A stretch of DNA of 63,171 bases, filler included, from Diploschistes diacapsis (Eukaryota), in assembly GCA_023645945.1 (NCBI GenBank). It is 9 parts of 9 records of this genome, joined end to end, with 100 filler letters (N's around TTAATTAATTAA, not from the genome) between each part and the next. Parts side by side here need not be neighbours in the genome. Positions count along the whole stretch, not along the records: positions 31,856 to 58,637 come from JALAIB010000171.1; 8 more parts are not named here. One strand, given 5' to 3'. The translations under genes and the position numbers were made by a program. The notes beneath the pieces were generated by a model. That model worked only from the letters and a program-made list of their open reading frames with translations. It did not search any database and had not been told where the DNA came from. Positions 18,240-50,367 of this stretch are shown here, in pieces (position 1 is the stretch's first letter; each line of letters starts with the position of its first letter).

Positions 18240-18483
18240 GGGAAGGGCGAAGGTTGGGGGGATGAAGAAGGGGGAGCGGAAAAAGAGGGTTTCGTTTGGA
18301 TGAAGATTGGCTTTTTGTGGCTTGTGAAAGCGGCTTTATTGTTGTCGGAGTTTTTCTTGCGGAAGCGGTTCTATCGTGGGTCTGTCTATGCTAGTCTATG
18401 GCTATGGCTATTCGCGCTTGCAAAACAGAGGTGCAACGGGTCTAATCTATGATGATCCACGAGTAAGCACTAGAGGGGGACGA

Positions 18484-20483: not shown

Positions 20484-22681
20484 ATGGCCTTCAATAATGA
20501 AAATTATTACCCTTTCCAGGATCCACGCGTACAGTCCCAATACTCGCGGCCGCAACATCAGCAATATCAGCAGCAGAGTCAGCATCCAGGTTTTTCACCG
20601 CAAACAGTACAAGTCCAGATACCCAAGATCCCACAATACGACGGAACGGCCCTTCAAAGCACGCAATACGCAGGTAGCTATCCAAACGCCCAATATCAGC
20701 ATCGTCACCTCCTGCAGCAGCAGCGCAACAATGAATGCCAGCAACCTCAGACGCCGCGGCAACCGCAGGAACGCAAACCTTCAAAATCTTCACCAAGTTT
20801 AGTATCTTCCAAGGGAGGACATAAGCATGCAGCAACTGCAGATTCGAAGCCTTCCTTACCTAAGCTAGTTTCGCCTGCCAAACCTGCTCAGGCAGAGAAA
20901 GTGAAGCCGAAACCAAAGGAGATTGAACTTGACTACGCTCTCCTTCTTATAGATCTTGCGGAAGAGTACTTTGGCGCCGCATACGGGAGAATTCATTCAG
21001 ACTCAAAGACGAAGGACGACCCTAACCAGGACCCGGATCAGTTCTACAAGCTTGTTGCTACCGGGTTGGTATGTCTAGAGGTCGTACTAAAGGTTCGTTC
21101 GCTAGGATATCAAGGATGTGTTGAAGGCTAATCTAGCAAGCAATGGAAATCCGCCTTAACGCCCTTGCTGGAAGCTGCCGTACGTCTGAGATATGCCTCG
21201 GTGCTTTTCCAGGAGACTGAAAGCCTGATGGAAGCTGAAGAGGCACTAAGTAAAGGAGTATGCAAGTTGAAATACGGACTAAGAAGTTGCTTTGCTGAAG
21301 CCGTACAGATATCTCAATGCGAAAGGGTATGCGAAGCCCCCAAGCGAAATCCTTAGTAATTTCGATTAGTATAAACTGCACGATCTCAAGTATAACATGC
21401 AACATCTCCTGGCTCGGATAAGCTATGCCACAAACTCCAGAGCTGCTTCCAAGTTTCTGGATGCAGCAATCAAGGTTGCTGAGGCGTAAGTAACAAGCTC
21501 TATTAAAGTCCATGACATGACTCTTTCTTCAGGGAACAGCACATTTCGTGGCTATACGCTTTTCGGTTCCTACGGGTTTCCAAGGCTCTTGACGTGAATT
21601 CCACCCAAGAGTCTCTTGCAGCCTTTGCTTTGCTGAAAGTGATCATGAACACCGCCAGCAGCAGAGGCGACGTCGCTATAGTAGCTACCGCTTGTGCTAC
21701 CGAGGCTTTGGCGCATGTCAGTCACTCCAGATCCTCGGAAAGCATCGAGCAGGCTCAAACGGCTCTGGCGACAATCAGGAGCGCTCAAATGAGTTCAGTA
21801 ACGGCCCAGGTACCTAATCTCACTATCATGGCTCATTTCGTCGATGTGATGTGCAGTCTCTTTAGGGACGAGTTCGACATGGCGGTGACCAAGATGACGG
21901 CGATGCACGTTTCTTTAGAGGAACTGAGGGAAAATAGCAGCTGGACAGCTGATGGGACGTTCAGAGTTCCACTGTCTCGGCCAGCAACCAAAGCAGGGGG
22001 TTCCTCCCATGGCATTGTGTTAACTGACCAGTCCGGGCGTTCTTTCCTGCAAGTAAGGTGGCTACCAAAGGATGTGATTTATACTTTGGGCTACATGCTG
22101 AGCGCAGCCGTGACCATGGCAAAAAATCCTCAGGAAAGAATGGCGGAAAGGTTTCTTAAGGAGGCGATGGGTGGGTCCCTCGAATATCATGGATGGTGTG
22201 ACATTGGCGAGCTAATCCATCTAGTGCAACTGGGTGATCCTACGAAAATGGACACCACAAGGATGGAACACAACTGGCGGCATCCTCTGCGTTGTCAAGC
22301 GCAGATTAGTCTAGTGTTCGCGTTGTGCGGGCGAAGCGCATGGGGCGAGGCGAAGAAGGAGCTAACATCACTAAAAGAAATGGCGATAGAGCTCGAGGAG
22401 CAAGCCAACTCTTCCACCATCGTCTTCATCCTCTACCTCGAAGGCATGATCCTCCAAGGCACCGGCGACACCATGGGTGCTCTCTCAATCTACACTAACC
22501 CTCGGCTCGCTACCAACCCCGACGCCCCCCAACCCCGTGAACCCTCCATAGTGCACGACCTCTCCATCCTCGCCGCCCTCAACTCCATCCTCATCGTCCA
22601 CCTCCCCACGCACCCCCAGCACTCCTCCCTCCTTCCTCCCCTCCTCTCCTCCCTGTCCCCCTACAGCTGTCATCTTGCAAT
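20484..22681 (+). CDS. Cohesin loading factor subunit (Scc4/Ssl3/MAU2-like), 3'-truncated
   Basis: Q-rich N-terminus, LLIDLAEEYF, YKLVATGLVCLEVVLK, EAAVRLRYASVLFQETESLMEAEEALSKG and TPR-like helices. Confidence 0.8.
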
Positions 22682-22781
22682 NNNNNNNNNNNNNNNNNNN
22701 NNNNNNNNNNNNNNNNNNNNNNNNNTTAATTAATTAANNNNNNNNNNNNNNNNNNNNNNNNNNNNNNNNNNNNNNNNNNNN
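22682..22781. other. Artificial contig-joining spacer
   Basis: N44-TTAATTAATTAA-N44. Confidence 0.99.
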
Positions 22782-27220: not shown

Positions 27221-27320
27221 NNNNNNNNNNNNNNNNNNNNNNNNNNNNNNNNNNNNNNNNNNNNTTAATTAATTAANNNNNNNNNNNNNNNNNNNNNNNN
27301 NNNNNNNNNNNNNNNNNNNN
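27221..27320. other. Artificial contig-joining spacer
   Basis: N44-TTAATTAATTAA-N44. Confidence 0.99.
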
Positions 27321-31755: not shown

Positions 31756-31855
31756 NNNNNNNNNNNNNNNNNNNNNNNNNNNNNNNNNNNNNNNNNNNNT
31801 TAATTAATTAANNNNNNNNNNNNNNNNNNNNNNNNNNNNNNNNNNNNNNNNNNNN
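31756..31855. other. Artificial contig-joining spacer
   Basis: N44-TTAATTAATTAA-N44. Confidence 0.99.
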
Positions 31856-32160
31856 GCCTATAAACGCTTTATATACCTCGCGAGGATATTTTCTTATTTA
31901 ATAATTAAAAATTACTACGCTTTATAATTAACAAATTTTTCAGAACGGCCATTAAACTTGTCGAGAAGGGAAGAAAAAGAGATATTATTACGCCGAACGA
32001 TTTCACGGAACGACAGCAAGAAGAATCGAGTTTTCGCTTCGATGAAAGCATTTTCCATCATCGAGAATATCTAGGATTAAATTAGTAAAAAATAAAAAAA
32101 TTTTTAGAACTTACAATAGATAAAAAAGGGGAGGGCATTTTAGGTATAAAAAGCGCTTAT
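31856..32160. repeat. AT-rich RIP-like remnant at the start of the 26.8-kb contig
   Basis: TpA-rich, no ORF. Confidence 0.45.
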
Positions 32161-32592
32161 GGATGATCGGTTACTAGGGTCCGCTCGGTTACTAGGGGCA
32201 ACACTCTAGTGATCGCGAGAGGCTCGGCCCTAACAGCGGCCAGCAGTTGGTTTCCTGATGTGTTGGATCCCGGGGAAGGAATTGGCATATACCTGCAACG
32301 AAGAAAAAGCTGGACTAAGAGTTTCGACCACAGACCCACCTCGAGCACACTTTCATGAAAATTGTGAGTGCATATCATAAACGCATCATTTCCGGACTTC
32401 TGCGGCTAGCTGCATCACCAGCGACGGTACTGCCGGAAATCCAGAACATATCATACGAGTGACATATCGCACGAGAGTCTTTTCCCATGCATTCGCCAGG
32501 ACGGCCGCAGAGATTCTGGTTTCTCGTGTCCATGTCAACAACAATGGACGTGATTTTTGGTGGGTCGCTCCCCCTGATATTACGTCGTAATA

Positions 32593-34082
32593 TCAATTGC
32601 TTGTACAGCTATCATTGTGCCCGCCATCGTCTTGATTATCGGCGCCGGTTCCACCCTCGCCAGAATCATCTCCAGCACTTTCATCACTACTGGGCACAGC
32701 ATTACCATCACCCGCACCAAATGAAACAACATTGTAGTTGTAGTTGTACAGACTGCAACCAGAGTCTACCACATCCACATTACTCACGGCTCGACCGATG
32801 ATAACTTCATTTTGAACAACTTCGACCATCTGGATTCCGACTTTCACACCCTTGATACTTCCGTAAGTCAGACCAGTAACACCCTGGGTACTGTGAAGCA
32901 GTGTCTTGCCAGTGTAGACATTAATAGTGGCATCGATGCTCACCGGTAGCAGGACAGCATAATTGATAGCATCGAATCCGTTCTTGGATCCGTCCGGCTT
33001 GCCCAAATGGTCTGCACATGTAGTGTTCAGAGATAGAGGTCGATACCACATTGAACCTTGAGGACTGGTCGTATTCGGAAGGATTTCTGCTATCGTTTTT
33101 GCATTTCCCTTGAATGCCTTGATAAATGGCCCCATTACTTGACGCCATGCTGAATGGTCATATATGGCATACGCTTTGATGGCCTCACTGGTAGAAATCT
33201 GACTGTCAAAGACATTGCCCATGCTAAATCCATTAACGTTGGACATTCTGAAATATGGACAACTTACTAGTGCCCTTCGCCAGCATCATTCCAAGTGAGG
33301 ATCTCAACCATATCTGGGTTGACCTCGAGAATCTGTTGCATCTTCATAGGTAGATTAGCTTCTCCAATTCTCATCCAGTTCCAGACATCATTGTTGGTGC
33401 CAGGCATGTGCTTGTACTGGAAGGTCGACAACGCCATCATATACGTCTTGCCTCTGCCGTTTGCATGAGCAGCATCTTTCATCTCTTGGTCGATATTGCT
33501 GGTCACGTTTACGACACCATTTTGTATCTCTGGCCATGCAGACTCCCACCCAAAGACGCCATTAGCGACAGGGAAATCTCCAAAGAAATTATCGCCATAG
33601 TCTTTGGCATTGTCGAAGTTCGGCATGAAGTAGACGTCTTGACCAAGCTTGTCTATCACTTCATCCTTCCACCATTGGTTTGGACTGCTTGATCCCTGGT
33701 TCAAGGTGCCGCCACTGAAAATCGATACAAATGGTAGATTGTTGTGTTCGTAGTAGGAAATGTCGTCCGTATAATTCTTAATGCCTTGAATCCACTGCGT
33801 GCTGTCGCTGGTAGCGTAGGTATCGATGGAGAAGAATAATTTGAAGTCGGCGTTCTTGATTAATCTGAAGAGCCGTTCTAGCGACGCGGTAGCCCATGAA
33901 GATGTCCAGTCTCCCATGTTGAGCGCGAAAGCATCGAGACCAAGATCGATGGCATCTTGAATATCTTTCTTAGCATCAGCATCACTACGACATGATTAAC
34001 TCGCTGTGGATGCCCAAAACAAAGGACTAACAAATAATTTACAAATCCGAAATTCTCACCTGACCATAAAATCCCACTTAAT
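32593..34082 (-). CDS. Glycoside hydrolase family 71 (alpha-1,3-glucanase/mutanase); first exon with signal peptide not found, possible pseudogene
   Basis: DIQDAIDLGLDAFALN, FKLFFSID, FGWESAWP, VEILTWNDAGEGH|YMGN, DHSAW and WYRP. A 44-nt intron lies near 33225-33268. Confidence 0.85.
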
Positions 34083-34824
34083 CTGGTTTCATTGCATTAG
34101 CGCAGCTATTTCGAGAGCAGATGTTTCAAAGGCATGATGTTTTGCGGCACAGAAAAAGAATAACAAATCATATAATTTAAATATTTATAAAATAATATAA
34201 ATATGTATGGATCGGCTTCGATATGCTATAAGCTGGGAGTAGATACTGCTTGAGTACTGGAACGATATTCGAGAAATCCTGCCATAGAAGTGTCCGGCGT
34301 GGTCTGTAGAGTGAAAGCCTACGCTGTTGTGTCCCTACAATCAATAGCTTATGTATCACTACAGAATGACCAGGAGGAGGTTACCTTTCGACCTTTCATG
34401 CATAGAAAGCCTTTTAGGAAATTGCACTGGTCAAGCCATTTTTTTGAAGTTTTATAGTGAATGAACTCGGAATATTCTATGCTGGCTGCATCGAGAAAGA
34501 CTGTGCTCCATGGAAGAGGCCGACGATGGTGGGTGCGTTGGCGGAAACATATCATGTCTAACAGATGTTCATTTCTTCCAGGTGGTGATTTGATCTGCAA
34601 GGATTTGCAAAAGTGTCGATCATTTATCTTTAGAAGGTCTGTGGATTCTTGAGTAGTGCCAGAGATTCTTTCCAGCAGAACGGGAAGAAATGCTAGGACC
34701 TGGTTTATAGTACTGAGTATAGGCATGTAGGCATGACATTCCTTAATATGCTAGAAAGCTTAGAAGGATGCCTGCAACACAATTGTGAAGGTCCATAAAG
34801 TAATCTTCCATATGAGGCACGTTT

Positions 34825-37337
34825 TCAACCCAGTTTGAAGGTTTGAAGTTGTCCTGGTCTAGTTTTGCGCATATTCCGTTCTATGATGCGAGCTCTGACT
34901 CCAAGATTAGAGCGATGAACAGCCGAAGCATGATTGCAGAATTGATCAGGATCTTGTATCAGTTTGCCGCAATCTGGAATAGGACAAATGAATGCGCCAA
35001 CCTGATATTGAAAGTGTACCATTTGATAGTGTCGCCTCAGATGGTCCTTGCGTTTGAAGAGATGGTTGTGGATTTCTGGCTTATAGCAGAAAAGACAAAC
35101 ATTTCGCGGTAATGTAGACCGTATTTTAGAAAATCTTCGGAAGCTTTAAGATGTTAGATGCTCGTTGTGACCTCTTTCTTTCCGGTGCCCGTTGTGGTGT
35201 AATCGGTCTTTGTGTTTTGGGTATTATAGTAAATTTATGTATTTAATAGTTACGGTTCTCCTGCGGTATTTGCCAGCATGATTTCCATGTCAGTAAAAAC
35301 TGGCTCTAAGCACAGAGCCTCGCCTGTAACAACTACAGGATTGCATTGGGCCGAGAAAACTTAACTCGTCTTATTTTTAACTTATTCAATATGTTCTTTA
35401 TTCACAGGACATGACTTGCTATCGATTCGAACTAGCTCGATTAATAAGCAAAAACGTGCCATAGATTTTATGATAAATACAAAATTCTCGTTGTCTATAG
35501 GACAGAATAGCTTGTCTATAAGCCGCTCACGTTCTGGCAACGAATCCCTGGATAGAGGTATCATCGCCCGTAAAGCGGGAGCTTCTCCTTTTAACTACAA
35601 CAGCATGTAGAATGGAAGTTGTCCAATAACTCCTTAAAAGCGATTCTTTCATAATTAAACTTCAACGTGCGAATGGTCTAAGTCATTAAGACCAATTCTT
35701 AATGACGACGACGATCAGGATAATCCGATGATGCTTTGTTAAGCTGTCCGTAAGTACTCTTGAACTGTAAATATAGTTCATAATATTGCTTTTATGCAGC
35801 TAAGAGATCGTCTTTCTGATATAAATGCTCTTTTTAAGTCGACGATAATGCTTTTAACAAATTTGGATCGCTACGCAGCCTGAGCTTGCCCATCTCTTTT
35901 ATCATGTCTAAACGAGATTCCATACCGAGAAATACAGCTTGCACGTCAACGACAACGCTTAACGAGAGATAATGCTTGAGGAAGGTTTCGGATCGAGCGT
36001 GACCCATGATTTGATTACGTTGTTGATCACTCACTCCTCGATCTGAAATCTTCAGCATTATACAACATCAGATATATTGTTAATATTACCTGTCAATTCT
36101 GTGCCAACCTCTCGCCGGAAGCAGTAAGAACGAAAGTCATGTTCCAGCCCCGCTAGTCGACCAAGTCGTTTACATTCTTCACTTACATGAGAAGCCGAAA
36201 GAGCTTGGCTTGGATGGATTTCCGCACCTCCAATCTACGAATGCCACGCCCGAAAGACAGAAATATTAAAAATATCCGCACGGAATTTAAACTCAATCGC
36301 TATTCTCCTTTCGGGACTTTTGAAGGTGTACAGTTTTAATGGCGTCAGGCCCTACTCCATCAGAATTATATAGAAAGCCTTGTCCGCGAAGGCCAGTCCG
36401 AAAAAATGGAATATTAGACACATCGTAGGACACTAGCGATTTTCGTAGAGCGTGATCGTCTTTAAAGAGGGACGTTTTCTCTTGCCTTTATCGAAACGAA
36501 TTGTCACTTCGAGGAAAAGTAATAAACTTCCATTCGGAAGTTGCAAAAGCTTGAGCTTCACATCCCGATACAAAAATGCTTAATTAGGCCTTTTATAACT
36601 AATACTCTCGACGATCGCACCAGATCTCGCGCCAGTATAGGCGAGGAACGGAAACACCGTAAGTAACTGTAACCTCTCACGTTCGTAGGGAAAGCGAGAT
36701 GTATCGAACGTCCAATAATAATAAAGCATACCCATCAACGCATAATGACCAACAGTATATGTCTACTTCATACCACGTATCAAAGAATGCTTAAGGGCGA
36801 AGGCGTTCTATAAATATTACCTGAAATTAGTATAAATCGACCATTGTATTTACTATCACTCGCGTTCGCCACCGGCTTACCAATATGATCTGATACACAT
36901 TGATGGGTCTTGTCGTAGTACAGCTCACGTATCGATTTCCATGTCGTCTCGAAAATGGTCAACCTACGCGCTCGAGGATGAGATTTGCGATACCATTCGA
37001 GGAAAAGAATGAAAGTCTTAGTGTCAGAATTCTCCAAGAGCTTTCCTAGGCCCTTCTTGCGATAGGTCCTACAGAATCCGTAAAGGTCAGCAGCCAAAAA
37101 TACAGGACTCGAGGATGCTTACTCTCGCCATGTATCCCACCACCGTGCCTAAAGCCGCACCGTGGCATCTGCGAGCTCACGTTGAATCATAGGTACATCC
37201 AAAGCATTAACCTCCTAAAGAAGCCCAAACATCTCTTCATCAGAGACTTCCGAGACGAAATTGCTGCCGTTGTCGGACTCACGGTCAGCATCGACAAACG
37301 GGCTTATATAAGGGTTCATATACTGAAATGCTGGCAT
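34825..37337 (-). pseudogene. DUF3435-like tyrosine recombinase with a C-terminal C2H2 finger (Starship captain-like), inactivated by stop codons
   Basis: ERERLQL..AYTGARSGAIVES, LYRDVKL, FRSYCFRR, RNQIMGH..TFLKHY..VDVQAVFLG and CPIPDC..FCNHASAVH. In-frame TAG/TAA stops near 37216, 37150 and 36581. Confidence 0.85.
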
Positions 37338-38301
37338 GATTCTCTGTCAATAATAAAAGGATGGAGAAAGTAGCTAAGGTCACAGAGTGAAGCAAGAAGA
37401 GAAAAATAAGGACGCAATATGAGAGAGAGACAGAAAGACAATCGAAAGAAATAGAGAACAGCATCCTCGAGAAATGCTTCAGATTCAAGCTACCTCAGGC
37501 GGAAGCGCTCAATATCAGCCACGAGCAGGATGGTCAGACCGATCTTCGTGATGGAGGGCAGCATGATACGGCGAGAGCCGTTTGGATACATGACGAGGAG
37601 CGAAAGATTGCACGAAGAGCAGCGTACTGAAAAAAAGCAGTAAAGTGAAGGCAGACTCCCAGCAGACAGCAGCAAGACGAGTAGTAGCAGAAAAGCGAAG
37701 GGAGCAGCATCGAAAAGACGAGGCAGCAAGCAGCAAACTAAACCGCATCCGGCCAGCTAAACCCTTTGAGGAAATCTCGGACACAGAGATGACGCGCTAA
37801 GTTAGGTTCCATACAAATTTTTATGTGCATTTCCTAGAGCAGCTCATTTTCAGAGCTTAATGCGTCGCTTTTCAGGCCATCTAAATCTAGAGAGAGAACC
37901 TTCTTGTAACAGCTGTAGCTCGTTTATGTAATGCATACTAATTACTATGGGAACTAGATATGAGCTATACGGCTTGGCAAGCACACTATATTTGGACAGG
38001 GTGGGGAGCAGGTGGTGCTCATGAATCATCTCGTACAGATAGATGTAGTACTAAGTATAACGACATCAAGCAAAATTCACAGCTGCAAACCTTAGTCCCA
38101 TTACTCCCATGTCTTGACGTCAATGACGATGATGCCATGACGACGCCATGGTGGTGCGGCTATATAATCCAGACGGACAATAAGAATCCACAAGTCGATA
38201 TTCACCATCAACCAAAGAATACAATAGCGAGAAAACCATCTTAGGACTTTGCCATTGCGAGAATTACCCCAACAAACACCTACATTAACTGCATCACGAT
38301 A

Positions 38302-38880
38302 ATGGACGGCGACAACACAGCGAAAACCTTCGACGCGGGCGCCAACTCGGCCACAAAGGGCGGCGTCGACTTCACCGACTCGATCCACGAGGGCGCACAC
38401 CAAGGGGTAATGCGATGTTCCTCCAATCCTCACCCTAACCCTCCTCTCTTTAGCCCACCTCACACATTATTCCCCCCTTCTCTTTCATCACCCTCTCTTC
38501 ACCATCTTCAACCCCAGTCCCACCTTATCAGGTCGAGTTCCCTTATACTGATTGGCTGACCGTCTATCCAGCAAGCCGCCGGCGACAAAACCACGGGCCA
38601 CGGCACCTCGGTATTCGACAAGCAGGGCGCTATCGGGAAGCACTTTACCGGTTGGTATTCCTCTTTACTCCTCTCCTCTCAAAGCTCTGCTCTTACCTTG
38701 TCCCTGAGAAACGATGGGATACAGTGCTGACTTGATATAGAGCAAGGCGCTCTGGGCGGAACGGCCCAAAACGTTGGCGGGCCGTTTGACAAGGAAGGCG
38801 CGATTGGCAAGCAGTTTACGACCCAGGGAGGTATTGGGGGGATGGCGCAGAAGTTGGCGGACCAGAATCAGCAGCACTAG
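38302..38880 (+). CDS. Small (about 107 aa) glycine-rich fungal protein with internal repeats; 2 introns
   Basis: MDGDNTAK..HQG|QAAGDK..FDKQGAIGKHFT|EQGALGGTAQNVGGPFDKEGAIGKQFTTQGGIGG; GT-AG introns with branch sites. Confidence 0.75.
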
Positions 38881-38984
38881 GAAGAGAGGGGGATTGAGCG
38901 GACTGCGGCATGGGGGTTCTGTAAAATATAGTTCTATTGCTTTGGCCAGAAAGGTTATGGCTTAGGCGTGAAGACCAATGGATG

Positions 38985-39140
38985 CTATTCCTAAGCTTTC
39001 CGAGTTCCTGCTCGACACCCTTTGTCGCGTCCGCAGCCTGCTTGCTCCACTGTGCAATCTGCAAAGAAGCCGTGCGTCAGCGTGTCAAAGTGTCTCCACT
39101 CGACGTTGTTGCCCGCACTGTCGAGCTTGTGCGCGTACTT
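38985..39140 (-). pseudogene. C-terminal fragment of an HSL-family (Abhydrolase_3) esterase, frameshifted
   Basis: YAHKLDSAGNNVEWRHFDTLTHGF, a 1-nt shift, then LQIAQWSKQAADA; no upstream exons recognised. Confidence 0.55.
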
Positions 39141-39364
39141 GATATTATCTAAGTTTTCCCAACTTGGCGAACAGCGTCGAGTATTTGAAGTAAGAAGATA
39201 CACTTTCACTTATATACGTCATTAGCTCTTATCCCCGTCTCTTTCTCCGGGGTGCGTTACAAACTATGACGTCCGAAATCGTGAGAAGTCTACATTTGCA
39301 AACAACGCCATGGCCACCCTTCACCCCTGTGGTAGAGCCATCGAAGGCAGACTACCATCCTACT

Positions 39365-39413
39365 CATCATCATCATCTTCTTCTTCTTCTTCTTCTTCTT
39401 CTTCTTCTTCTTC
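39365..39413. repeat. Compound (TCA)n(TCT)n microsatellite
   Basis: Directly visible, about 50 nt upstream of the ATG at 39462. Confidence 0.95.
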
Positions 39414-39461
39414 TCCTCATCACTTGTTATTGCGAAGCCCATCTGAACGTACTGTATCACC

Positions 39462-40884
39462 ATGTCGGATCCAAAGGCCCCCAACATTGGCATCAGAGAC
39501 ACGCCCGCATGGAACCTCTACCAGCGGGAAAACTTCTGGAAGGTGAATGAGGGCGAGGTGCCTCCCTTCAATACAGGTAAGTGAGCGATTAAGCGCTGCG
39601 GTACATGTAGTCTGATTATATTCTAGACCCGGGCAAACTTGAAGAACTTGCGAAACAGAAGCTCACCCAAAACGGCTGGTCTGTCTTTCTTCCGTTCCTC
39701 TCCTATCGTGACCCTGATTGCATTCAAGGCTATACGCCTCTTCCAATGCCGGCCAATCCTACACCCACCTCGCGAACCGCCAAGCTTTCTTCCGCCACCG
39801 CATAATACCGCGCATGCTCGTCGACACCAACACCCGCACCACCAGCACCACTATTTTCGGCCACAAGGTTTCCGCCCCTATCGGCATGGCCCCCATTGGT
39901 ATCAACAAGATCTATCATCCCGCAGGCGAGCTGCCCGTCGCCAAGGTCGCCAAGGAGCTGAACATCCCCTACTCTCTCTCCACCGCCGGATCGCAGCCTA
40001 TCGAAGATGTGGGCAAGGCCAATGGCCAGGGCCCACGCTTCTACCAACTATACATGCCACACGACGACGAACTGACGGTCAGCCTGCTGAAAAGGGCGTG
40101 GAACAGCGGTTTCGACGTCTGCATCCTCACGATCGATACATGGCAGCTGGGCTGGCGCCACGACGACATAGCGACCTCCAACTACGCTTTCTACCACGGC
40201 ATGGGCGCCGACTTGGGCTTGAGCGACCCTGTATTCCAGAAGCGCCTGACGGAGGTGGGCATCGACCCGGCAAAGGAGCCGGAGAAGGCGGGCGCGATGT
40301 GGATCGACAGTGTCTGGCATGGGCGGGCGTGGAGCTGGGAGAAGATACCGTGGCTAATCAAGACGTGGAAGGAGATCAGCGGCGGGCGGCCTTTCTGCCT
40401 GAAGGGCATCCAGAGCGTGGCGGATGCGAATAAGGCGGTCGAGGTTGGCTGCGACGGCATTGTCGTGAGCAACCACGCGGGACGCCAGGTGGACGGCGCC
40501 ATCGCCAGCCTGGATGCGCTGGAGAACATTGTGGACGCCGTGGGCGACAGGACGTACATCATGTATGACTCGGGCGTGCGCGGTGCGGCGGACATCGTCA
40601 AGGCGCTGGCGCTGGGCGCCAAGTTCGTGTTCGTTGGGCGCCTGTGGGTCTGGGGCCTGAGCGTTATGGGCGAGCATGGCGTGAGGCACGTCATGAAGGG
40701 GCTGCTGGCCGAGTTGGACATTCTGTTTAACGTGGCTGGCATCCAGAACGTGGACCAGATAAACCGGAGTCTGCTAGGTGAGTAGCCCGAAGTTTCCGTA
40801 ACGCGAATATATGGTGTAGCTAAATTTTTGGTAGAATCGTACCCAAAGGGCTATGCCATGATAGCCGAGAGGTCTAAGTTATAG
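39462..40884 (+). CDS. FMN-dependent alpha-hydroxy acid dehydrogenase/oxidase (lactate 2-monooxygenase-like), with PTS1; 3 introns
   Basis: MAPIG, FYQLY, LKGIQ, SNHAGRQVD and DSGVRG; last exon ends ERSKL*. Confidence 0.94.
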
Positions 40885-40903
40885 CTTCCCTGGTGCAGCC
40901 ATA

Positions 40904-41313
40904 CGGTCACGTTCCAAAAGTAGTGAGCCTGGCCCAAAAAAAACTAAAACCTGCGCATTTACGAGGCTCCCACCTTGACAAATAAAAATTTTTAAAGTCA
41001 AGGACTTTACAAGGAGCCTTCCAAAGTACCGTTATAAGATTTAAACTCGCTTTAAATAACAATGTAAGTATTTGAAGTGTATCGTTGTCACGAAATATCG
41101 TGGAAGCGGTACGTTCTCGATCTCTGTAACGTAATTATTTTCATCCCTGCTTCAATATTTTTGAAAAAAAGAAAATCGAGTGAGTATAAGCTGCTTCCAT
41201 TCCCCCCCCCGGATTGTTAAAAGCCTTATTCGTGGTAGGACAACTTTGTGAAATGGGAGCTTTTTTCCGTTTAATTTGGGGGGAAGGGCTTATTACTTTT
41301 TGACCGAGTACTG
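40904..41313. mobile_element. Degenerate Tc1-like MITE (about 410 bp)
   Basis: Left end TA-CGGTCACGTTCCAAAAGTAGTGAGCC; right end (reverse complement) TA-CAGTACTCGGTCAAAAAGTAATAAGCC; AT-rich interior. Confidence 0.5.
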
Positions 41314-42517
41314 TATATTCACACCGTACATGTGTATAGAGTGTGTCAAACATCTAGCGATAAGGATAAGTTGATGACTATAAGTTATATCCACCGCGAT
41401 GTCAAGACCGTTAGAACAATATAAAATACATCCTGGTGTCGCTGCCCGTTCCTAGTCAAAAGAAATACTGGCCAGGTGGCTATATATCAGACAGACTCGG
41501 CTTGGGGAGTTCTACGATGATCTGATCTTCGATGTCCTCCCAGGCGGCTCGGGACCGATTATGGCGTCGGACCTGGAGGACTTTCTATAGTAAGTGCACT
41601 TCAGATTCGTCTTCCGAAACTCACATATGCTAACATTAGCCGCCCCTAACAAACGCGAAGCTGCCCGCCGGTTGGAAACCCCCCCCCCCCTTAGATGACA
41701 ATCATCAACCTCAACACTAGTGTAATGGAGAGCCTCACCGAGGCGACAAGTATTCGAGATATTAAGAACATGGGCCGGAAGTTGGCAGGTTGGGTGCTCA
41801 GAAGCTGGCTTCCGTTCTAAATCATGACTTTTGATCCATATTTCCTAATTGTCACGTCAAGTTTTTTGCGATCGATCTTCTATCAGTCTTAACCATACAC
41901 GCGACAATGAAGGGCCCAATTTCAGTTGTGGAATGACAAATCAGAGCGATAGGTTGCAGGAATCTTGGCACGCCCTATGGGTGAGGGTTACGAATGTTCC
42001 CTCTTCGCTTCTTGTTGCGCACGTCAAGCGGTGAAGATCACAACTCGTATCGAATGCTGGTTACATGGTGTGTCCAGCCATCGCAGGAAAGGTATCGAGC
42101 TATCTTCACAACTCCAATCTCTCACGCCAGGAATGGCCAATTGCCCGCTTTACCCTCTATGATATTCTGTGTCTAAGACATGTAGGCTATTCTGCCGTGA
42201 TGCGGTACGCGAAACTATCACTTGGGACAGTGCCAGGAAGTAACGGAGCCTCTTTTGACATGGAATGCCAATCTTTGTACTACCAAGATGCTGGGGGGGT
42301 CCTCGGGTATTGTGCAAGTTGCATCGAAGGCTAAGGGCGACCTCCTGGGAGCCGAATTCACTATAGGAAACGCCACAGAGCCGTAGGAATATGCGCTATA
42401 TTCTGCCGCTTATGGCCTCCTTGGTAGGACAACGACCTTCAAATATAAGTTGTTGGCAATCCCCAGCCGCTTGGCTTGACTGCTTGCTCAGAGGGTTCCC
42501 TATCCGGCGCGATCAAT

Positions 42518-44203
42518 ATGAATCACGGTGAAAGCTTCATGGCCTTGGACGATGATAAGACTTGTGAAGTAAGCCATCTTGCTCTTCTCAGCAACCCAGA
42601 AGTGACTTTCGACATTTCGTTGAACGAACCTTCTCAACATTCATCAAGATGGCAGAGTCGAAGATGGTGGCCAAAGAGGTGGATAAAGTGGTTACAACCC
42701 GGCAACACTGGAGCGTCTTATGCCGGTCTTCCATCTGAGGTAGAACTTGAGGAGGCGGATGAGAAAGTCACTGATACCATGTCGGAGCAAACCATGGTGG
42801 ATAAGGATGAAACTGCAAGGCACTATCTTGTATTGAGCCGCATCTACAAGTCATTCGTTTGGCTACTGCCAAGCTTCCTCCACCGCTATCTCATGGAAGT
42901 ACCTAAATCAGAAAGCAAGCCAGGCCCGACAGATTACCTAGACGGTATCAGAGGTGTCGCCTCACTCTTCGTCTTTCTAAACCACTACTTAGTTCAGATT
43001 CACCCAGGGTTTGTCGACTACGGCTATGGCCATGACGCTGATTCCGTGAGCATCTTCCAGCTCCCCTTCATCCGACTTTTCTACTCTGGAGCAACAATGG
43101 TTACAGTATTCTTTGTTGTCTCGGGCTACGTCTTGTCTCGGAGATGTGTACTGGCGATACGGCAGGAGAACAACAAGAAGCTGTACCAGGCTCTCAGTTC
43201 GATGGCATTCAGACGTGGCATCAGATTATTTCTGCCTTGCATCGTCATCTCCTCCATAGTTCTGATGGCAGTATTCATTGGCTGGATACCGTCTAGAGTA
43301 CAGCCAGAGAAGTGGACTGCTGGAAAAGAATTGGCCAACTACATCCGCTATCTCGACCAAGAGCTTTTCAGAATGTGGGAATGGGGAGTTAGTTTCACGG
43401 GCTTCTACTCCTACCAACTGTGGACCATCCCCGTGGAATTCAAATGCTCACTGATACTCTTCATGGAGATCCTACTGGTGTCGCAATGCCACACTTATCT
43501 ACGAATCTTCATTCACTCAGCCTTGATCATTTATCTCTTTGCCGATGTTCGGTGGGATATAGCCTGTTTTATCGCCGGTCTGCTGCTTGCCGAAGCAAGC
43601 GCGATCTACGAAGAGAGTAGTGATAAGCGCGCCGCGGCAGCTGACGATCTCAACAAGCCACTGGAGTTTCACCGGAGGAAACCTCTCCATATAAAGATCA
43701 TCAAGCCCTTGCTCTGGGCAGCGCTGATCATGGGTTGCTACATTGGAGGATATCCCACGGCCGATGCGGCCAACACCCCAGGGTACGGCTGGCTCGCAAA
43801 CATGTCGCATGACGGAGAACCAAGAACAAAATTACGGTTCTGGCTTGCCATTGCCGGAATCCTGATTGTCAGCCCCTGTTGCTTCCTACCTACGGCGCAA
43901 CGATTCTTCAGCACTCGCCTAGCGCGGTATCTCGGCAAAAATTCTTTTGGTCTGTATCTTGTCCACGGATTCATGAACCGCACGGTCCGGTACTTCCTAT
44001 GGGATGCATTCTGGAAAGTCTTGCAATACACGGGCCACAAGGATCAGGAGCTTCAGTACGACGAGGGCTGGATTCTCTCGACAATACTCTATATCCCGAT
44101 CGTCTTCTGGTTTGCGGACGTCTTTACGAGGGCCGTAGATCAGCCGACGGTAAGATTCGCCAAATGGGTGGAAGCGAAATGCTTTAGGCAACAGAAGCTG
44201 TGA
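42518..44203 (+). CDS. Acyltransferase family 3 membrane O-acyltransferase, intronless
   Basis: YLDGIRGVASLFVFLNH, FFVVSGYVLS, RRGIRLFLP, LWTIPVEF and YLGKNSFGLYLVH. Confidence 0.93.
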   Translation: MNHGESFMALDDDKTCEVSHLALLSNPEVTFDISLNEPSQHSSRWQSRRWWPKRWIKWLQPGNTGASYAGLPSEVELEEADEKVTDTMSEQTMVDKDETARHYLVLSRIYKSFVWLLPSFLHRYLMEVPKSESKPGPTDYLDGIRGVASLFVFLNHYLVQIHPGFVDYGYGHDADSVSIFQLPFIRLFYSGATMVTVFFVVSGYVLSRRCVLAIRQENNKKLYQALSSMAFRRGIRLFLPCIVISSIVLMAVFIGWIPSRVQPEKWTAGKELANYIRYLDQELFRMWEWGVSFTGFYSYQLWTIPVEFKCSLILFMEILLVSQCHTYLRIFIHSALIIYLFADVRWDIACFIAGLLLAEASAIYEESSDKRAAAADDLNKPLEFHRRKPLHIKIIKPLLWAALIMGCYIGGYPTADAANTPGYGWLANMSHDGEPRTKLRFWLAIAGILIVSPCCFLPTAQRFFSTRLARYLGKNSFGLYLVHGFMNRTVRYFLWDAFWKVLQYTGHKDQELQYDEGWILSTILYIPIVFWFADVFTRAVDQPTVRFAKWVEAKCFRQQKL

Positions 44204-45242
44204 CCATCAAGTCGAACGAATCCTTTGATGTTTGCAACGCCCAGAGGGGTCACTTTACGAACGATGAGGTATCCCGCCCGCATTGATCTGGATATCGGGG
44301 GTCTATAGATGGTTTTTGGGTTCGACATTGAATTCAAGAGCTTTATTCGAAGTTGCTGTTGTGCATGTAGTTTAGGACTAGAGTTATTCTGTTAATGTGC
44401 TTTCAACCTCAATGCCAAGCAAAAGATACTATTCCACCTGATAATACCTACCCAGGAGCGTCCCTGGATGCTTCAGAACAACTATAGAATAAAACCGAAA
44501 GGTTCTGGGGGAGAGCTTCAAGTACAATAATTTTGTTATGTACCTAGTCCTTCTCAAGCATTCTTTGAGCTCTTATCTAGGCAGAAAGTGGTGGAAGAGG
44601 TATTTGCTGAGCACCATGTTTTTGCAAGCACAAAGCTTGCGAGACCAGTGGCAGCTTCAGCTTTGACCCAAGTTAGAGCCGAGGACGGTTTGAGCTCCAC
44701 AGTAGAGCTTGTGTCGTCCAAGTCCAACCTGAGCTTTTCAGCGCTGTCTTGACATTCCAAGGGTAGCAGCATGATGAATGCAAACAAAATCTTAGCTAGG
44801 ACCGTCCACATTGCCAAAGATTTGATCACAATGAAAAACATGTTAATATTTAGAGCTGGCGAAGCTGGTTGAATTGCCGCAGGCACATACAGAGCGGAAC
44901 TATGAATTTCAAGTCTTCACGATAACCGAATGAATGGCATGCTTAGACGTGTGATCACTGATAAAGGGGGGCTCCTGTAACGGTATTCAAAATCACAAAG
45001 CAATGCAAGCTTGCTCTCGACCGTGACTGGAAAGGTTGAAACGCATGGCTGCTTGGCTGTCGGCAACTTTGAACTTCGGCCACAGAGTACTTCGACTGCT
45101 TGCAGATGATCTTGCACAGCTTCGCATTAGGCCCTGAGTATTGCCCCTTATATATACAGAATAGCATTAAAAACCGTTATGTTCGCTGGCCAAGTCTGCT
45201 ACGACTCTCTCGCCCTTGACGTGCCTGTAATGCTCGCCAACA

Positions 45243-46734
45243 CTACGTACTCGTCAGCGGCTGGCCGCTGAGCGTTTGCTCGAAGTATTGAAGAGCAGCC
45301 CGTGGCTGGTAGTAAGGTACTTCGTGGCCAGCCTCATAGACCTGTAGCCAGCTGAGGTTGTTGACATTTTTGTACAGCCCACTGGCGTTGCCATTGACGG
45401 TATACGACTTCAGAGCTGTGTTCACGAATTCGGACTGACCCGACCACGATATCGAGTTGGCCACGTTGAACCCTCCCTGATAGTTGCAGATCCAGTCAGC
45501 ATCGCCGGCGATGAGAGAAACGCGGAGTCCGCTCGACACCAAAGCCCCCAAGGTTGACAGGAAAGAGCGAGAGTCGTCCCCAGTGTTGGAAAACTTGTTG
45601 TAGGGCGCGTTGGGACATTCTTGATAGGTCTTACTGGCACCAATAGCCTTCATGACAGAAGCGCTTTGAAGGTAAGTCACGTATGTCTCCGGTGGATAAG
45701 GGTCATTCGAGGGCTCCCGGACATCGTATACGTCGAAGTTTGCAGCTTCCGAAATCGGCCCCTCGATGTCGCTGTAGCAGACGTTGTCGGCATTTTCGCA
45801 AGCAGAGTTCTGGCTGGTCGCAGTCTGGGAGGTACATTGCTGGAGAGCCGGCAAGCAGTTCTGGGTGTAGGAGCTCATGTAGCTCGTGTGCTGGGACTGC
45901 GTGATGATTTGCTTGTAGGTGTTGTTGTAGCTGTAGTCGATGTAGGCTCTGTATTGGATGGCCGGGTCATACCAGCCGTTGTTGATACCCAGAGCAACAA
46001 GGTCGATCTTCTCACCGGTTACCGACCCACTCGCAATAGCCGAGTTCTGCTGCTCGAAATAGCTTGAAAATTCTGGACCGTAATGTCCACCGTAGCTTTC
46101 GGTAAAGAGTCCAAAGTTCCGGCTCTCGTACTGAGGGAACTGCGTGTAGAATGCCTGCAGCAGTTTCCACACGTATGGAGCAGCAGTCACGGTAGAAGTG
46201 ACGCTATCAGTTCCGTAGCTGAAGCCGGTGCCGATGGGCTGATCGACATATAGCATGTTGGCGTACGAGTTGAAGCTGTACGGGTTGAGGGATGGGGTGG
46301 AGGCGCCATTGACAAAGTGGCACGGTCCGTTCTCCTGGAAGAGTCCAATCATACTGGAGCAACCAGGGCCTCCGTTGAGCCACAAGGCTAGCGGAGCAGT
46401 GGTGGGGCTGTTGCGTGCTTCAAAGAACCAGAACCCTAACTCCATGTCAGTATACCGGAATGGCTCAAGTGGCCGAGGTACGGAGCATACACATGTTCAT
46501 GTTTGTGCCGACGGAAAGGTATCCAGAGTACTGGTTGACACCGGGAGTCGTCTCACAGATGCCAGAATTTGTCACGAATTCGAGCTTGGCGCCCGTGGCA
46601 GCATGCTCGAAGACGGTGTAGTTCACGCCATCGCGTTCAACAAAAGACCGCCTGTCTACCGGGCCGGCAGGAACAGCCGCGACTAGAGCGGCGCATAGAA
46701 CAAGGCCAAGGCTAGCAAGACTAGGAAACCGCAT
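45243..46734 (-). CDS. Secreted serine carboxypeptidase S10 (carboxypeptidase S1-like); 1 intron
   Basis: Signal peptide, WLNGGPGCSS, DQPIGTGFSY, TESYGGHY, GDADWICN and EAGHEVP. Confidence 0.96.
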
Positions 46735-47770
46735 GATGAACAGTATTGCGGTGAAACAAGCTGGAACCACTCAATCGCAAAAATGGTGGGACAATACATG
46801 ATTTTATATCATGTCCGTGGATTGACCTTTCGGTCACATGCCCAACGCTTTGCCTTATCATTGCCAAGTAGCTGCAATATTTCGCAAGGGAGGCTCGGTG
46901 AATACCGAAAGTGAATACGGACGAAGCAAGGGATAGATTAAAGAAAGCAAGCTTATGGGTGGTAAAAGAACTCGGGATGACATGACATGCAGGGCCAGCC
47001 GGATGGCTCCCTTTATTGAGCAAATGAGAATCAAGACCACATGCGATGAAATCCCATAGCCGTAGTGATTAGGGGCCTTCCGACCAACACCAAAGCGTTA
47101 ATTGAAGTGGAAGCGAATCCAACTGCGGAGATCAAGCAGGAAGAGTAAAGAGCATCCATCAAATTGCGCTAAGAAACGGCTAACGGGGTGCTAGATGATG
47201 CACAACATTCTAAAGCCCGAGGTGGCAAAGATAAGAACACAAAGCCAGAGCCTATATCATACGATCAGTGCGCAAGGTCGTGATCACAAGAGTGATGTAA
47301 AGCTTACAACTAAAGCGAAGCAACCCAACGACTGGTTATAGGTGAGGGTAGAAAAGAGAGTAATAACGCCAAATGGTTACGGAGCATGAATCGAAAAGGA
47401 AGGAGGAATAAATTTGAGGTAGGAGCAAAGTGAAGGCACGGAGTACAATATCTATTTCCGCTACTGGGCCTGGGTGTGCATATATATATATATATTCCTG
47501 CTCATTACATTAAGTAAACTATTAACGGGAGTTACCTCTATTGCAAAACCGCCGCAGATGCAGATGCAGATGCAGTAGCATACGGACGGGGAATTTCCGA
47601 TATCATGTTGTTTGATTATGTCGGCGACTCTATTTTTATCGATTGCAGCAGAACCTTCTTTTAATGGGCGCTCGGTTTGGGCCATGATGGACGTTCAAAT
47701 CTTTGATTCGAAGATCGAAAGGCTGTTAGAGATATGCTGCTGCTGCCTGCTGGAGGGCTCGAGCACTGAA

Positions 47771-48430
47771 AGTCTGGCGTGCCAAAAGTAGTTAAATCCC
47801 CCCCATTTCTCACCAAAATTGATCAACTTTATACCCAAATACTATCTTCTCCAGCAATGTGGCAATTCGAAAGTTCAAAAAACTATGAAGAACATTAAAA
47901 GCATTATGTATACAGAAAACTTGTTTTCGTTTCTCTTACTTTTTTCTTAAAAACCTAAGACGGAGGTAAATATTCAAAAAAATCCCCGTCGAAAATCGCA
48001 TTTATGATGTGCAGTGACTGTATGCTCGTGACGTCTTAAGGCCCCTATAAAAATTCTTAAAAACCGAGAAAGATACTGCTGGAATTTTTTAGAAATTCAA
48101 ACTCGTTTTCGCGGAGATATAAGGCTAAAACAATGATAATGATTGATTGTGTCGACTTAACCTGTATTGCCCTAGTATATTTATACACGATTGTTTAGCT
48201 ATAAAACTTCCACTTCAGAAGAAACCAGCCGTATATAATGAGGATTATTGATAACAAGTATCGAAATAACCATTTTTATAATTAAATAAATTATTAAGCC
48301 TAGAAAGAAGAGTATTCCGGTGGTGGCAGCAGCAGTGAAAGTCTGAACCTATGACCTTCAAATACATCTGCCAGCAGTCGTCTTAAACCATTCGTATAAT
48401 ACCTCCAATACCTATAATTGTGTTATTAAA
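47771..48430. repeat. AT-rich degenerate repeat starting with a Tc1-like TIR motif
   Basis: GTGCCAAAAGTAGTTAA at about 47779, followed by AT-rich non-coding sequence. Confidence 0.45.
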
Positions 48431-49015
48431 TCACCTTTTATTCAAATCACGGAGACGAAAGATGCGAAGCCGATGCTCAATCTCCATCTCCATATTCCAT
48501 ATCTCGCACGAAGCTATGTGATATGTCCGACGTCGAGGATGGAACTGCTTTACGCGTATTTTGCTTGGGTTTGTGTCCATCTTCGGGCTTGTGGTGCTTT
48601 CCAATGCCGAGACAGCGCGTGTAAAGGATCTTAGACCTTTCTCCCCGCCCAATTGTCTTTCGAGTGCCGGGTTTGGGCCCTGCTTGTTCAGGTTCCTCGG
48701 GGCCGATGATCCGAGATTTGCTTTTCGCTTTCGCACCTTTTGCACGAGTTCATTAGGGCTCTTTGTAATTGAGATACATGATGGGTATAGTTGAGACCAC
48801 GATCGGCCAAGGACCACAAGAGGGCAGCGGTCTTGAGCTCTGGACAAGCCCTACTGGCCTGATACGTGCGCATACGTGTTCCAAGCAGCAGGCTGAGTGA
48901 TTGGAAGCACTTCGTAAAACTATATAGCAGCTGTTGCCGGAACATTGTTTCCCTAGATATCTTCTTCAAGTTATCACATTATAGGCTACCAATATTATTT
49001 TGTCCTTCAAACAAG

Positions 49016-50367
49016 ATGGCTTCCCATACAAAACAACCTCACGTCCTTATCGTCGGAGCCGGACTCGCAGGTCTAGCACTTGCCCAAGCGCTCCGCAAAC
49101 AGGGCATAACCTTCGAGATCTATGAGCGCGATGCCAACGTCCATGCCCGTTTCCAGGGCTGGGCCATCGCTTTACACAGGTAACCTTCACCCTTCATCTG
49201 CATGCGAGGCCCAACCTGACTGGCGTAGGGTGCTGGCAGACTTTAATGAAGCCATGCCCGAGGACTTGGGCTCGGTCGAGAGCACGAGCCATTTCCTGCC
49301 ACTCGATCTCCATGCCAAATTCGTCATATATACCCACAGCGAAGCAAGGACCATAGCCGAAGACGTCCCAGAGCACCGGCTTATTCGGGCCAACCGCTTG
49401 AGGTTAAGAGAGTACCTCGCCAAAAACCTGCATATCAACTGGAGCAAGAAGTTCACCAGTATCATGGAGAAGGATGACTCTGTAACTCTGCACTTCGAGG
49501 ACGGCACCTCGGCCACAGGCGATGTACTGGTCGGCGCTGATGGGGTTCATAGCCATGGTAAATTAGCAGCGTATTTGAAAAGAATGGCCCGGCGCTAACG
49601 GATGCCGAAGTTCGCTCATACCTCTATGATGGCAGAGAGCTGCTGCGGAATCTCCCAGTTGACGCGGTCGTTGGCCAAGTGACGCTCAACAAAGAACAAT
49701 ATGAGAAACAGCTTGAGATAGGCCGCTCAGCTTACATCGCCTTGGGCCCTGATGGCCAGCGTATCTTTGTTGGCCTAAATTCCGTCGACCGCGACGCACG
49801 GCATGCGCAGTATTATTGGATATACATCTTCCACAGCCAGACGGCTGTCGAAGGACCAGCATATTGGACACACCATTCGAAGCAAGAGCAATACAATCTT
49901 GTGCTCAAGGGCACCGAGCCTCTTGAACCGAAACTCGCGGAGATTGTGCGGATAACGAAGCCCGAAAAGATCGTGGTTCCCGGAATTGTGCTTCGGGACT
50001 TGAACCTAGAGTCAATGCCAAACAGACGCGTGACGCTAGTAGGAGATGCAGCTCATGCCATGGCTCCGAGTAAGTTCTCCACTCTCCTCCGAGGTGAACA
50101 CCGTTAACCTGAGCCTCAGACCGCGGCGAAGGTGGGAATCATGCCATTCAGGACTCTTTGAACCTTGCACGTGCCATAGCCAAAGCTGGTTCAGGCGACA
50201 TCCTACCGCATCTTAAGGAATACCAGGATGAGATGCTCGTACGAGGAAACGAAGCCGTCAATAAGTCTAGAGCAGCAGCAATGGACCGTGGTGAGGGTAC
50301 AGTTCTTGGATGGAGCGGTTGGTCAAAGCCAGCCCCTTCAAAAGCCTCAGCCATAGAAGCTCATTAG
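49016..50367 (+). CDS. FAD-dependent monooxygenase (FAD_binding_3); 3 introns
   Basis: VLIVGAGLAGL, FQGWAI, LVGADGVHS and VTLVGDAAHAMAP..RGEGGNHAIQD. Confidence 0.93.

Follow-up and report, generated by a model that had tools for sequence, protein, structure and literature searches.

Here we describe a recombinase locus in a 63,171-nt stretch of DNA from Diploschistes diacapsis (assembly GCA_023645945.1; referred to as the window), which is fungal DNA from a metagenome bin of a lichen metagenome, 98% of its sampled words being present in a run with that label. The window consists of 9 contigs joined end to end and split by 8 artificial spacers, each made up of 44 N, a 12-base linker with stops in all frames and another 44 N, and any linkage inferred across these joints is invalid. 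On the contig at 31856-58637, the minus strand carries a pseudogene for a DUF3435 tyrosine recombinase of the 'captain' type, as found in Starship transposons, whose product ends in a pair of zinc fingers. The gene is preceded by a non-coding region that begins at a sharp 5' terminus. A short interspersed repeat and a gene for an FMN-dependent dehydrogenase lie outside this terminus, while a GH71 alpha-1,3-glucanase gene lies on the inner side, behind the recombinase (Table 1).

A DUF3435 recombinase gene behind a conserved 5' terminus

An earlier note, made from the sequence of the window, had proposed a captain-type DUF3435 recombinase at this locus. A Pfam scan of the stop-to-stop fragments on the minus strand returned colinear matches to PF11917 (DUF3435) between 35.8 and 36.8 kb, and two of the four fragments exceed the curated cut-off of 25.8 bits by themselves. 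Intact relatives of the recombinase score 127-193 bits. To this we added a word-based homologue search in which stops were read as X and which yielded two relatives among 1112 candidates. One is an intact metagenome protein from ENA (P0002; 652 amino acids (aa)), which is 72% identical to the window gene (E 3e-152); the other is a hypothetical protein of Lambiella insularis (P0003; 778 aa), 50% identical and with precomputed PF00589 and PF11917 assignments. In tblastn, the two span the whole gene from its ATG to its TGA. The colinear profile matches and this homology thus bear out the proposed family. PF00589 itself was touched by the fragment at 36058-36234, below threshold (E 0.0026), and a comparison of P0003 with PDB gave sub-threshold matches only, with XerC and XerA appearing weakly (E 0.4).

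All four motifs that the note assigned to the catalytic set (YTGAR, YCFRR, IMGH and FLKHY) are present and are invariant in P0002 and P0003. The gene is spliced on the minus strand, as had been suggested: the splice at intron 2, which is apparently intact, is backed by P0003, where ELT is joined directly to DRGVSD, and the place of intron 1 is backed by all five relatives examined, in each of which a canonical GT..AG intron, 53-62 nt long, interrupts the gene at precisely the same codon boundary. The extent originally given, 34825..37935, could not be kept at its upper limit, because the gene reaches only to its ATG at 37337, and what lies upstream of it is non-coding sequence of the element up to 37796 and then flank plus an unrelated repeat (37797-37935).

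At the C-terminus, where one C2H2 finger had been seen, the finger proved to be real and to form part of a pair. Between 15 of 15 and 17 of 18 relatives retain its eight Cys/His ligand positions, the exceptions being copies degraded by repeat-induced point mutation (RIP), and four non-ligand Cys/His positions are not conserved among the relatives. The C-terminal piece of open reading frame (ORF) that carries both fingers (35145-34828) has no internal stop. Databases match the C2H2 label weakly (Pfam zf-C2H2, E 0.03; ADR1 fingers, E 0.056). The finger pair probably helps to bind DNA.

The position of the 5' terminus was obtained from related loci. A profile scan of metagenome contigs with P0002 and P0003 identified 22 loci with 36-62% protein identity, which fall into three subfamilies in an all-against-all blastn. 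The members of a subfamily all become homologous at the same sharp point upstream of the recombinase and remain so for 5-13 kb downstream, and taken together the loci have 17 distinct, unrelated 5' flanks before that point. When the window was aligned with 10 related loci, homology started exactly at CGCGT in all 11 sequences, with unrelated sequence upstream in every case, and the first ~120 nt of the 5' terminal region align with the termini of the relatives. In the relatives, the terminus is situated 1027-1300 nt upstream of the point that matches residue 1 of P0002; this geometry predicts a terminus at about 37798 in the window, 2 nt off the one found. A boundary had been expected near 37.8-37.95 kb, and it does exist, but the aligned termini place it at 37796|37797, just below that range. 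Nothing coding lies between the terminus and the ATG, and the recombinase is the first gene, as it is in the relatives with a defined terminus. An inverted copy of the 5' terminus occurred in none of the loci.

The interspersed repeat next to the terminus has an inverted copy at 51881-52040 (82% identical) and a partial copy at 17593-17655 on another contig. We compared the Logan contigs of four sequencing runs, all of them metagenomes, over positions 31856-50000; X1 is the probable source run. Over the repeat, depth peaks at 801 (X1), 1258 (X2) and 249 (X3) compared to about 100, 100 and 3 nearby, that is, 8-80x. Rfam and tRNA scans of the repeat gave no match, which rules it out as a target derived from 5S or tRNA genes. 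The two TTAC sites that had been put forward as boundary candidates (37906-37909 and 37928-37931) had to be abandoned, as they lie 110-135 bp outside the element and inside the repeat, and both are kept in the copy at 51881-52040. No target of the TTAC or TTAC(N7)A type adjoins any of 18 termini from the window and its relatives. Joints and loose ends at 37835, 37841 and 37910 belong to variants of the repeat and were rejected as element ends. The end of the element lies within about 10-45 bp of the repeat, and this proximity may reflect a target preference.

As the X1 unitigs break at 37876 and 37939, inside the repeat, and the window stems from a metagenome bin, two unlinked regions might have been joined at 37843-37991, which would turn the boundary into a misassembly. 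We consider this highly improbable. The terminus was set by homology to other elements and not by assembly, and it is located not at a unitig edge but 47 bp within an X1 unitig that covers 32181-37876 without any difference. The X1 depth is also similar on both sides (about 106 versus 88-107).

Table 1 Positions of the features at the recombinase locus and of the spacers in the window
Feature	Position	Strand	Details
DUF3435 tyrosine-recombinase ('captain'-type) pseudogene	34825..37337	-	PF11917 fragments; tblastn with P0002 and P0003; ATG at 37337, TGA stop at 34827-34825
Exon 1	37337-36864	-	
Exon 2	36816-36090	-	
Exon 3	36042-34825	-	
Intron 1	36817..36863	-	non-canonical ends GC..AA
Intron 2	36043..36089	-	47 nt, GT..AG, apparently intact
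PF11917 fragment	36580-36762	-	profile positions 6-50
PF11917 fragment	36433-36579	-	profile positions 50-90
PF11917 fragment	36058-36234	-	profile positions 163-209; 36.1 bits, E 4.9e-9
PF11917 fragment	35834-36067	-	profile positions 213-277; 52.2 bits, E 6.1e-14
Putative catalytic core	35969..36639	-	tblastn and MAFFT alignments with P0002 and P0003
YTGAR (Arg)	36639-36625	-	
YCFRR (Arg)	36126-36112	-	
IMGH (His)	36010-35999	-	
FLKHY (Tyr)	35983-35969	-	
16-nt frameshifting deletion	35607..35617, about 35610|35609	-	five residues and one base missing compared to P0002 and P0003
C2H2-like zinc-finger pair	34915..35097	-	C-x2-C-x18-H-x4-H and C-x4-C-x12-H-x4-H
Element 5' terminus CGCGT	37792..37796	-	boundary 37796|37797; alignment with 10 relatives
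Non-coding 5' terminal region	37338..37796	-	459 nt, terminus to ATG
Short interspersed repeat, outside the element	37843..37991		~150 bp; other copies, depth peaks
Downstream sequence shared with other copies	34150..34824	-	675 nt; X2 and second X1 contig
GH71 alpha-1,3-glucanase gene, apparently intact	32593..33995	-	Pfam PF03659 on two exons
Artificial spacers	4464-4563, 9026-9125, 13584-13683, 18140-18239, 22682-22781, 27221-27320, 31756-31855, 58638-58737		

Lesions, mutation bias and further copies

The window copy is not an intact, potentially active gene. Its aligned exons contain 17 distinct in-frame stops (8 TAA, 9 TAG and no TGA), which stand opposite Gln in 6 of 12 cases in the P0002 alignments, in 4 of 13 in those with P0003, and in 8 of the 17 when either homologue is counted. 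At the 16-nt deletion the frame switches at NFHS|YMLL without intervening sequence, where the homologues have NADLD (P0002) and TADLD (P0003). A second frame change falls into a poorly conserved linker (35.24-35.12 kb). At intron 1, which has lost its canonical ends, a nearby CAG acceptor would shift the frame. The claim that stops of the RIP type had inactivated the gene is borne out in that the gene is dead and carries such TAA and TAG codons, but not all of its lesions are stops, the deletion being one exception.

We then inferred the direction of the changes from the protein alignments, and not from a DNA copy, by determining for each mismatched codon the single base change that yields the residue of the homologue, and the same script was run on the 22 related loci as controls. 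Against P0002, 57 mismatches are accounted for only by C>T or G>A on the window side and 17 only by the reverse (binomial p 3e-6); against P0003, 56 are in the RIP direction and 21 are reverse. The corresponding ratio is 0.9-2.2 in the 12 intact relatives and 5-9 in two plainly degraded loci, L012 and L014, which have 37-51 stops and a GC content of 38-42%. The context of the changes gave a similar picture. C>T occurred at CpA in 23 of 32 cases and at CpG in 2 of 32, and the CpA share differs from that of the pooled intact relatives (28 of 106; Fisher p 6e-6), with L012 and L014 reaching 44 of 49 and 44 of 47. G>A occurred at TpG in 8 of 25 cases compared to 18 of 235 in the intact relatives (p 0.001). 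The composite RIP index (CRI) is -0.10 to -0.27 over 34.9-37.4 kb and about -0.8 in the flanks. The window copy thus falls between the intact and the heavily mutated relatives, and the excess in direction and context over these internal controls upholds the RIP-type damage that had been claimed. Together, the data point to RIP of light to moderate degree, accompanied by a small number of other lesions, with RIP itself as the presumed mutating agent. The group-1 copies L012, L014 and L009, with 15-51 TAA or TAG stops and 38-44% GC, are RIP-degraded and serve as positive controls.

Could general GC-to-AT pressure on neutral sequence, that is, ordinary pseudogene decay, have produced the stops instead of RIP? 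The classical thresholds for RIP (TpA/ApT > 0.89; (CpA+TpG)/(ApC+GpT) < 1.03; CRI > 0) are missed by the recombinase gene, with values of 0.83, 1.10 and -0.27, and the best 1-kb windows have 0.87, 0.97 and -0.10. In addition, the 16-nt deletion and a T>C change at the intron 1 donor are not RIP changes, as ordinary decay would allow. This explanation nevertheless appears improbable to us, as it would not account for the preference for CpA with hardly any change at CpG, for the lack of TGA among the stops, or for a bias that, measured by the same method, is missing in the 12 intact relatives and stronger in the RIP-degraded ones.

RIP acts on repeated sequence, and the earlier note accordingly suggested that this sequence had once been duplicated; further copies were found in the X1 and X2 contigs, indicating that the sequence is repeated in these metagenome samples. 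In X2, two contigs match 34327-36537 (182 differing letters, 32 gaps) and 36546-37833 (87 differing letters, 23 gaps), roughly 92-93% alike, with X2 differences listed from 34193 onwards; their depth is about a quarter of that over the right flank. This copy extends 37 nt beyond the terminus, to 37833, which may point to a shared insertion site or to the same repeat having been the target. In X1, a second contig of 8968 nt is ~85% alike over 34197-34554, from where it skips to 35973, a joint that rests on this one contig with a side of 67; it looks like a degenerate, internally deleted copy. The unit shared with the other copies covers about 34.15-37.83 kb.

Elsewhere in the window, the contig at 9126-13583 has 33% GC, a TpA/ApT of 1.10, a substrate index of 0.65 and a CRI of +0.45, and is probably a heavily RIP-mutated repeat. 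This RIP-like composition suggests that RIP acts in the metagenome bin.

Related elements, the GH71 gene and the extent of the element

The related loci were also used to follow the elements beyond the recombinase. L010 and L020 are 98.5% identical over 13.1 kb and have different 5' flanks; L001, L002 and L005 are 96-98% identical, with different flanks in L002 and L005 and with L001 beginning at a contig end. Such near-identical copies behind different flanks suggest recent movement. Behind the group-1 recombinase come a convergent gene of the Sir2 family (9 loci), an ORF of unknown function, a ferric reductase (L001, L005 and L009) and another unknown ORF; group 2 (L010 and L020) also has a ferric reductase. 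Similarity among the group-1 copies is lost after about 10.7-12.6 kb, so that the 3' ends are approximate, and an apparent group-1 3' end in CGCGAA was in fact a break in the alignment caused by a 45-nt indel. The relatives are built like Starships, with sizes near the lower limit of the range.

Some of these loci showed further features in or around the elements. Upstream of the 5' terminus, L005 (5287-8071) and L019 (166-5244) have a second, more divergent ferric reductase and the same unknown ORF, which looks as if one element were sitting directly behind the tail of another, head-to-tail or nested. In L002, a 1744-aa open frame with AAA_11/AAA_12 helicase domains (16707-21938) follows the point of departure from the sister copies at 14373, and may be alternative cargo or flank. 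L011 has an NLR-like gene (PNP_UDP, NACHT and TPR; 5380-8290) just upstream of, and outside, the 5' terminus of its group-2 element.

The relatives also bear on whether the locus was ever more than a compact, Crypton-sized transposon of ~3.7 kb that consisted of the recombinase only and never had cargo. The shared unit of about 3.65 kb with its one gene would agree with such an element, and in one study, which like the publications named below is cited here from excerpts, DUF3435 repeats were first annotated as Cryptons (PMC9156397). However, all relatives with enough flank share 5-13 kb behind the recombinase, including the Sir2 and ferric-reductase genes, and the same excerpts treat DUF3435 recombinases as a clade separate from Cryptons (PMC9156397). 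We therefore regard a captain-only transposon as most improbable.

In the window, the order leftward from the recombinase is the 675 nt shared with other copies, the GH71 gene, which is oriented like the recombinase, a unique stretch of 0.4 kb and a high-copy repeat at 31857-32210 (summed depth 600 in X1, 2051 in X2 and 115 in X3) that ends the contig, the real end being 0.7 kb past GH71. A protein search with GH71, limited by shared words, gave 105 matches among 524 candidates. The best match is a JGI metagenome fragment with 53% identity, and the best named ones are from Penicillium/Talaromyces (Eurotiales), Thermoascus and polypore basidiomycetes (Polyporales) with 45-48%. Blastenia, which we take to be a Lecanoromycete and which is the only named match recognised as such, reaches 31%. 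The FMN-dependent dehydrogenase just outside the boundary, by comparison, has matches of 84-89%, several lichen fungi included. GH71 has no RIP signature (CRI -0.86; -0.81 at 34.0-34.8 kb), and its GC content at third codon positions (0.43-0.56) is inside the range of other genes (0.47-0.83) and therefore uninformative. From these comparisons, GH71 looks like an accessory gene, which would fit cargo.

Alternatively, only the first ~3.65 kb of an element (about 34.15-37.80 kb) may survive as a truncated relic, with GH71 being a host or accessory neighbour that was never carried. To this we assign a chance only somewhat below even. The other copies share only the stretch from about 34.15-34.2 to 37.83 kb, and the RIP-like shift is confined to 34.9-37.4 kb, with GH71 and 34.0-34.8 kb looking untouched; a short shared unit and mutations confined to the recombinase fit a stump. 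Moreover, leftward of the recombinase there are neither auxiliary genes nor any of the cargo genes of the relatives, and the group-1 gene behind the recombinase is conserved among copies over at least 4.5 kb, unlike in the window. A relic would, on the other hand, leave unexplained why GH71 is found on the cargo side, reads in the same direction as the recombinase and has no close orthologue, when the dehydrogenase across the boundary has close ones, and no 3' terminus was seen near 34.15 kb. As to GH71 itself, the balance between cargo and a neighbour of a surviving ~3.65-kb stump is about even.

Several observations around this question were set aside. The genes rpS8e, Scc4 (cohesin loader) and CAP left of 31.7 kb were dropped as an argument against leftward cargo, since they are on other contigs with N spacers between. 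Over the right flank (38.5-50 kb), depth is about 97 in X2 and about 3 in X3, compared to 0.6-7 and 0-0.5 over GH71 (32.5-34.2 kb), and the recombinase is also bare in the X3 contigs; we did not use these coverage holes as evidence for a presence/absence difference starting at the boundary, because a hole proves nothing and there is no bridging contig. No contig in the four runs convincingly bridges an empty site over 31856-50000. An X1 joint from 33477 to 40271 was rejected as an empty site because it rests on one contig with a 22-letter side and would halve two genes.

Taken together, we consider it likely that a Starship-type transposon of a fungus in this lichen metagenome has left its 5' end here, dead and with RIP-like damage. 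The data show the family, the terminus, the lesions, the direction and context of the mutations, and the further copies. The element starts at 37796 and reads leftward on the minus strand; its first gene, a DUF3435 recombinase with a C-terminal zinc-finger pair, comes after a conserved terminal sequence of 459 nt. This recombinase, of the kind that excises and re-inserts Starships, would once have moved the element, whose contents beyond the recombinase gene we infer. After the element had become repeated, RIP, or something with the same signature, would have introduced C to T and G to A changes, by which many Gln codons became TAA or TAG. With the 16-nt deletion and the damaged intron 1 adding to this, the copy can no longer make the protein.

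A number of points weigh against this interpretation. With respect to the damage, the missed RIP thresholds and the lesions of other kinds have been described above, the TpG context of the G>A changes is only weak, and an intact S10 peptidase gene on the same contig has a similar CRI (-0.05). The second X1 contig, being only ~85% alike, may come from another organism in the sample, and the shared unit is as compatible with a short stump as with a long element. With respect to the element, the relatives, at about 11-13 kb or more with approximate 3' ends, are small for Starships, and none of their cargo genes is present in the window: tblastx of 31856-34830 against the 22 loci gave no match. 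No Starship auxiliary family (DUF3723, FRE, PLP or NLR) was detected by Pfam among the window ORFs of at least 130 aa, 40 of 63 of which were scanned. The search also brought to light neither a 3' end nor direct repeats nor an empty site for the window copy, and hence it is not a delimited Starship; a 120-nt 3' region of L001 and L009 has no match in the window. Finally, the recombinase is a putative captain by its DUF3435 domain and its layout.

The remaining parts of the window showed a number of features of their own. Seven of its contigs have 4435-4463 bp each and are in descending order. Between the interspersed repeat and the dehydrogenase gene, short open frames with repeated Gly-rich motifs occur on the plus strand (38.25-38.9 kb), which from translation only may represent a small stress-protein-like gene. 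A trinucleotide microsatellite at 39351-39428, left out of the comparison with the runs as a repeat, reads as poly-Leu, poly-Ser or poly-Lys, depending on the frame, and another high-copy repeat is found at 47.7-47.85 kb (summed depth about 300 in X1, 377 in X2 and 32 in X3). On another contig, an open frame at 2483-3604 with weak RNase H and Pol beta-barrel matches is a retroelement remnant.

Comparison with known systems

Starships are the main known vehicles that move whole gene sets between fungi, and their captains, including HhpA of Hephaestus, have reportedly been described by Gluck-Thaler et al. in 2022, Urquhart et al. in 2023, and Gluck-Thaler and Vogan in 2024. The part that Starships play in lichen fungi was reportedly first described in 2026. 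A dead captain by itself is ordinary and of an already known, recently described kind. What the present analysis provides is a 5' end, exact to the nucleotide, for a captain clade with zinc fingers from lichen-type metagenomes, along with near-identical copies at different sites, which suggest current or recent activity, and a small, repeatable cargo of Sir2 and ferric reductase in the relatives. Such a terminus permits the screening of short-read metagenome contigs for insertions without long-read assemblies. If GH71 is cargo, the locus would provide a concrete example of a Starship supplying a lichen fungus with an enzyme that acts on cell walls. The most far-reaching combination, a compact Starship lineage of lichen-associated fungi with a C-terminal double zinc finger, a CGCGT 5' end, no TTAC-type target, a size of ~11-13 kb or more, Sir2 and ferric reductase as cargo and recent movement, which also brought GH71 into this genome, seems rather doubtful to us as a whole; if true, a cell-wall enzyme would have reached a lichen symbiont by horizontal transfer on a Starship. 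In the excerpts of the Starship, DUF3435, captain and Crypton literature at hand, neither the CGCGT terminus nor the zinc-finger captain clade was found described, although no search was aimed at either.

According to these excerpts, a Starship carries its captain, a DUF3435 recombinase, at the 5' end, and many predicted captains are pseudogenes (PMC11162782). Captains as well as RIP occur in lichen fungi, for which 1,508 captain-type recombinases were reported in 2026 (Tagirdzhanova et al., PNAS 2026, PMC13486527), and ferric reductases are given as one of four auxiliary gene families on Starships (PMC9156397; PMC13486527). Compared with Starship captains, the recombinase described here differs in that the window copy is a pseudogene, that no TTAC(N7)A-type target is seen and that the relatives reach only about 11-13 kb or little more. 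It shares with them the DUF3435 domain, the position as first gene behind the 5' end, the inward transcription and, in the relatives, a cargo that includes ferric reductase, and the intact homologue, with 778 aa, is near the median of 812 aa given for captains (PMC11162782).

Among individual systems, the Tangerine elements resemble the locus in their lichen-associated host, in a recombinase that comes first, 0.5-1.4 kb from the 5' end, and in RIP acting on repeats, and the genomes of that paper likewise contain many recombinases without a delimited element (PMC13486527). In contrast, most captains of the Tangerine family are stated to be without a core-binding domain, the Tangerine captain itself having 283 aa (PMC13486527), whereas the 778-aa homologue here has a long N-terminal part and zinc fingers. 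The Wallaby captain also has many premature stops within a recognisable coding region (PMC11162782), and RIP degradation of Starships has been reported (PMC13486527); unlike the window's, however, those elements are delimited. An extra zinc-finger DNA-binding module on a captain is known from Enterprise of Podospora (PMC11162782), which has a chromo domain, while the module found here consists of two C2H2-like fingers in tandem at the C-terminus, with no chromo domain detected. Fungal Cryptons, finally, have a tyrosine recombinase as their only enzyme, and the shared unit of about 3.7 kb is of Crypton size. The window recombinase is nevertheless of the DUF3435 family, which is separate from Cryptons in published trees, and its relatives are not single-gene but multi-gene elements.

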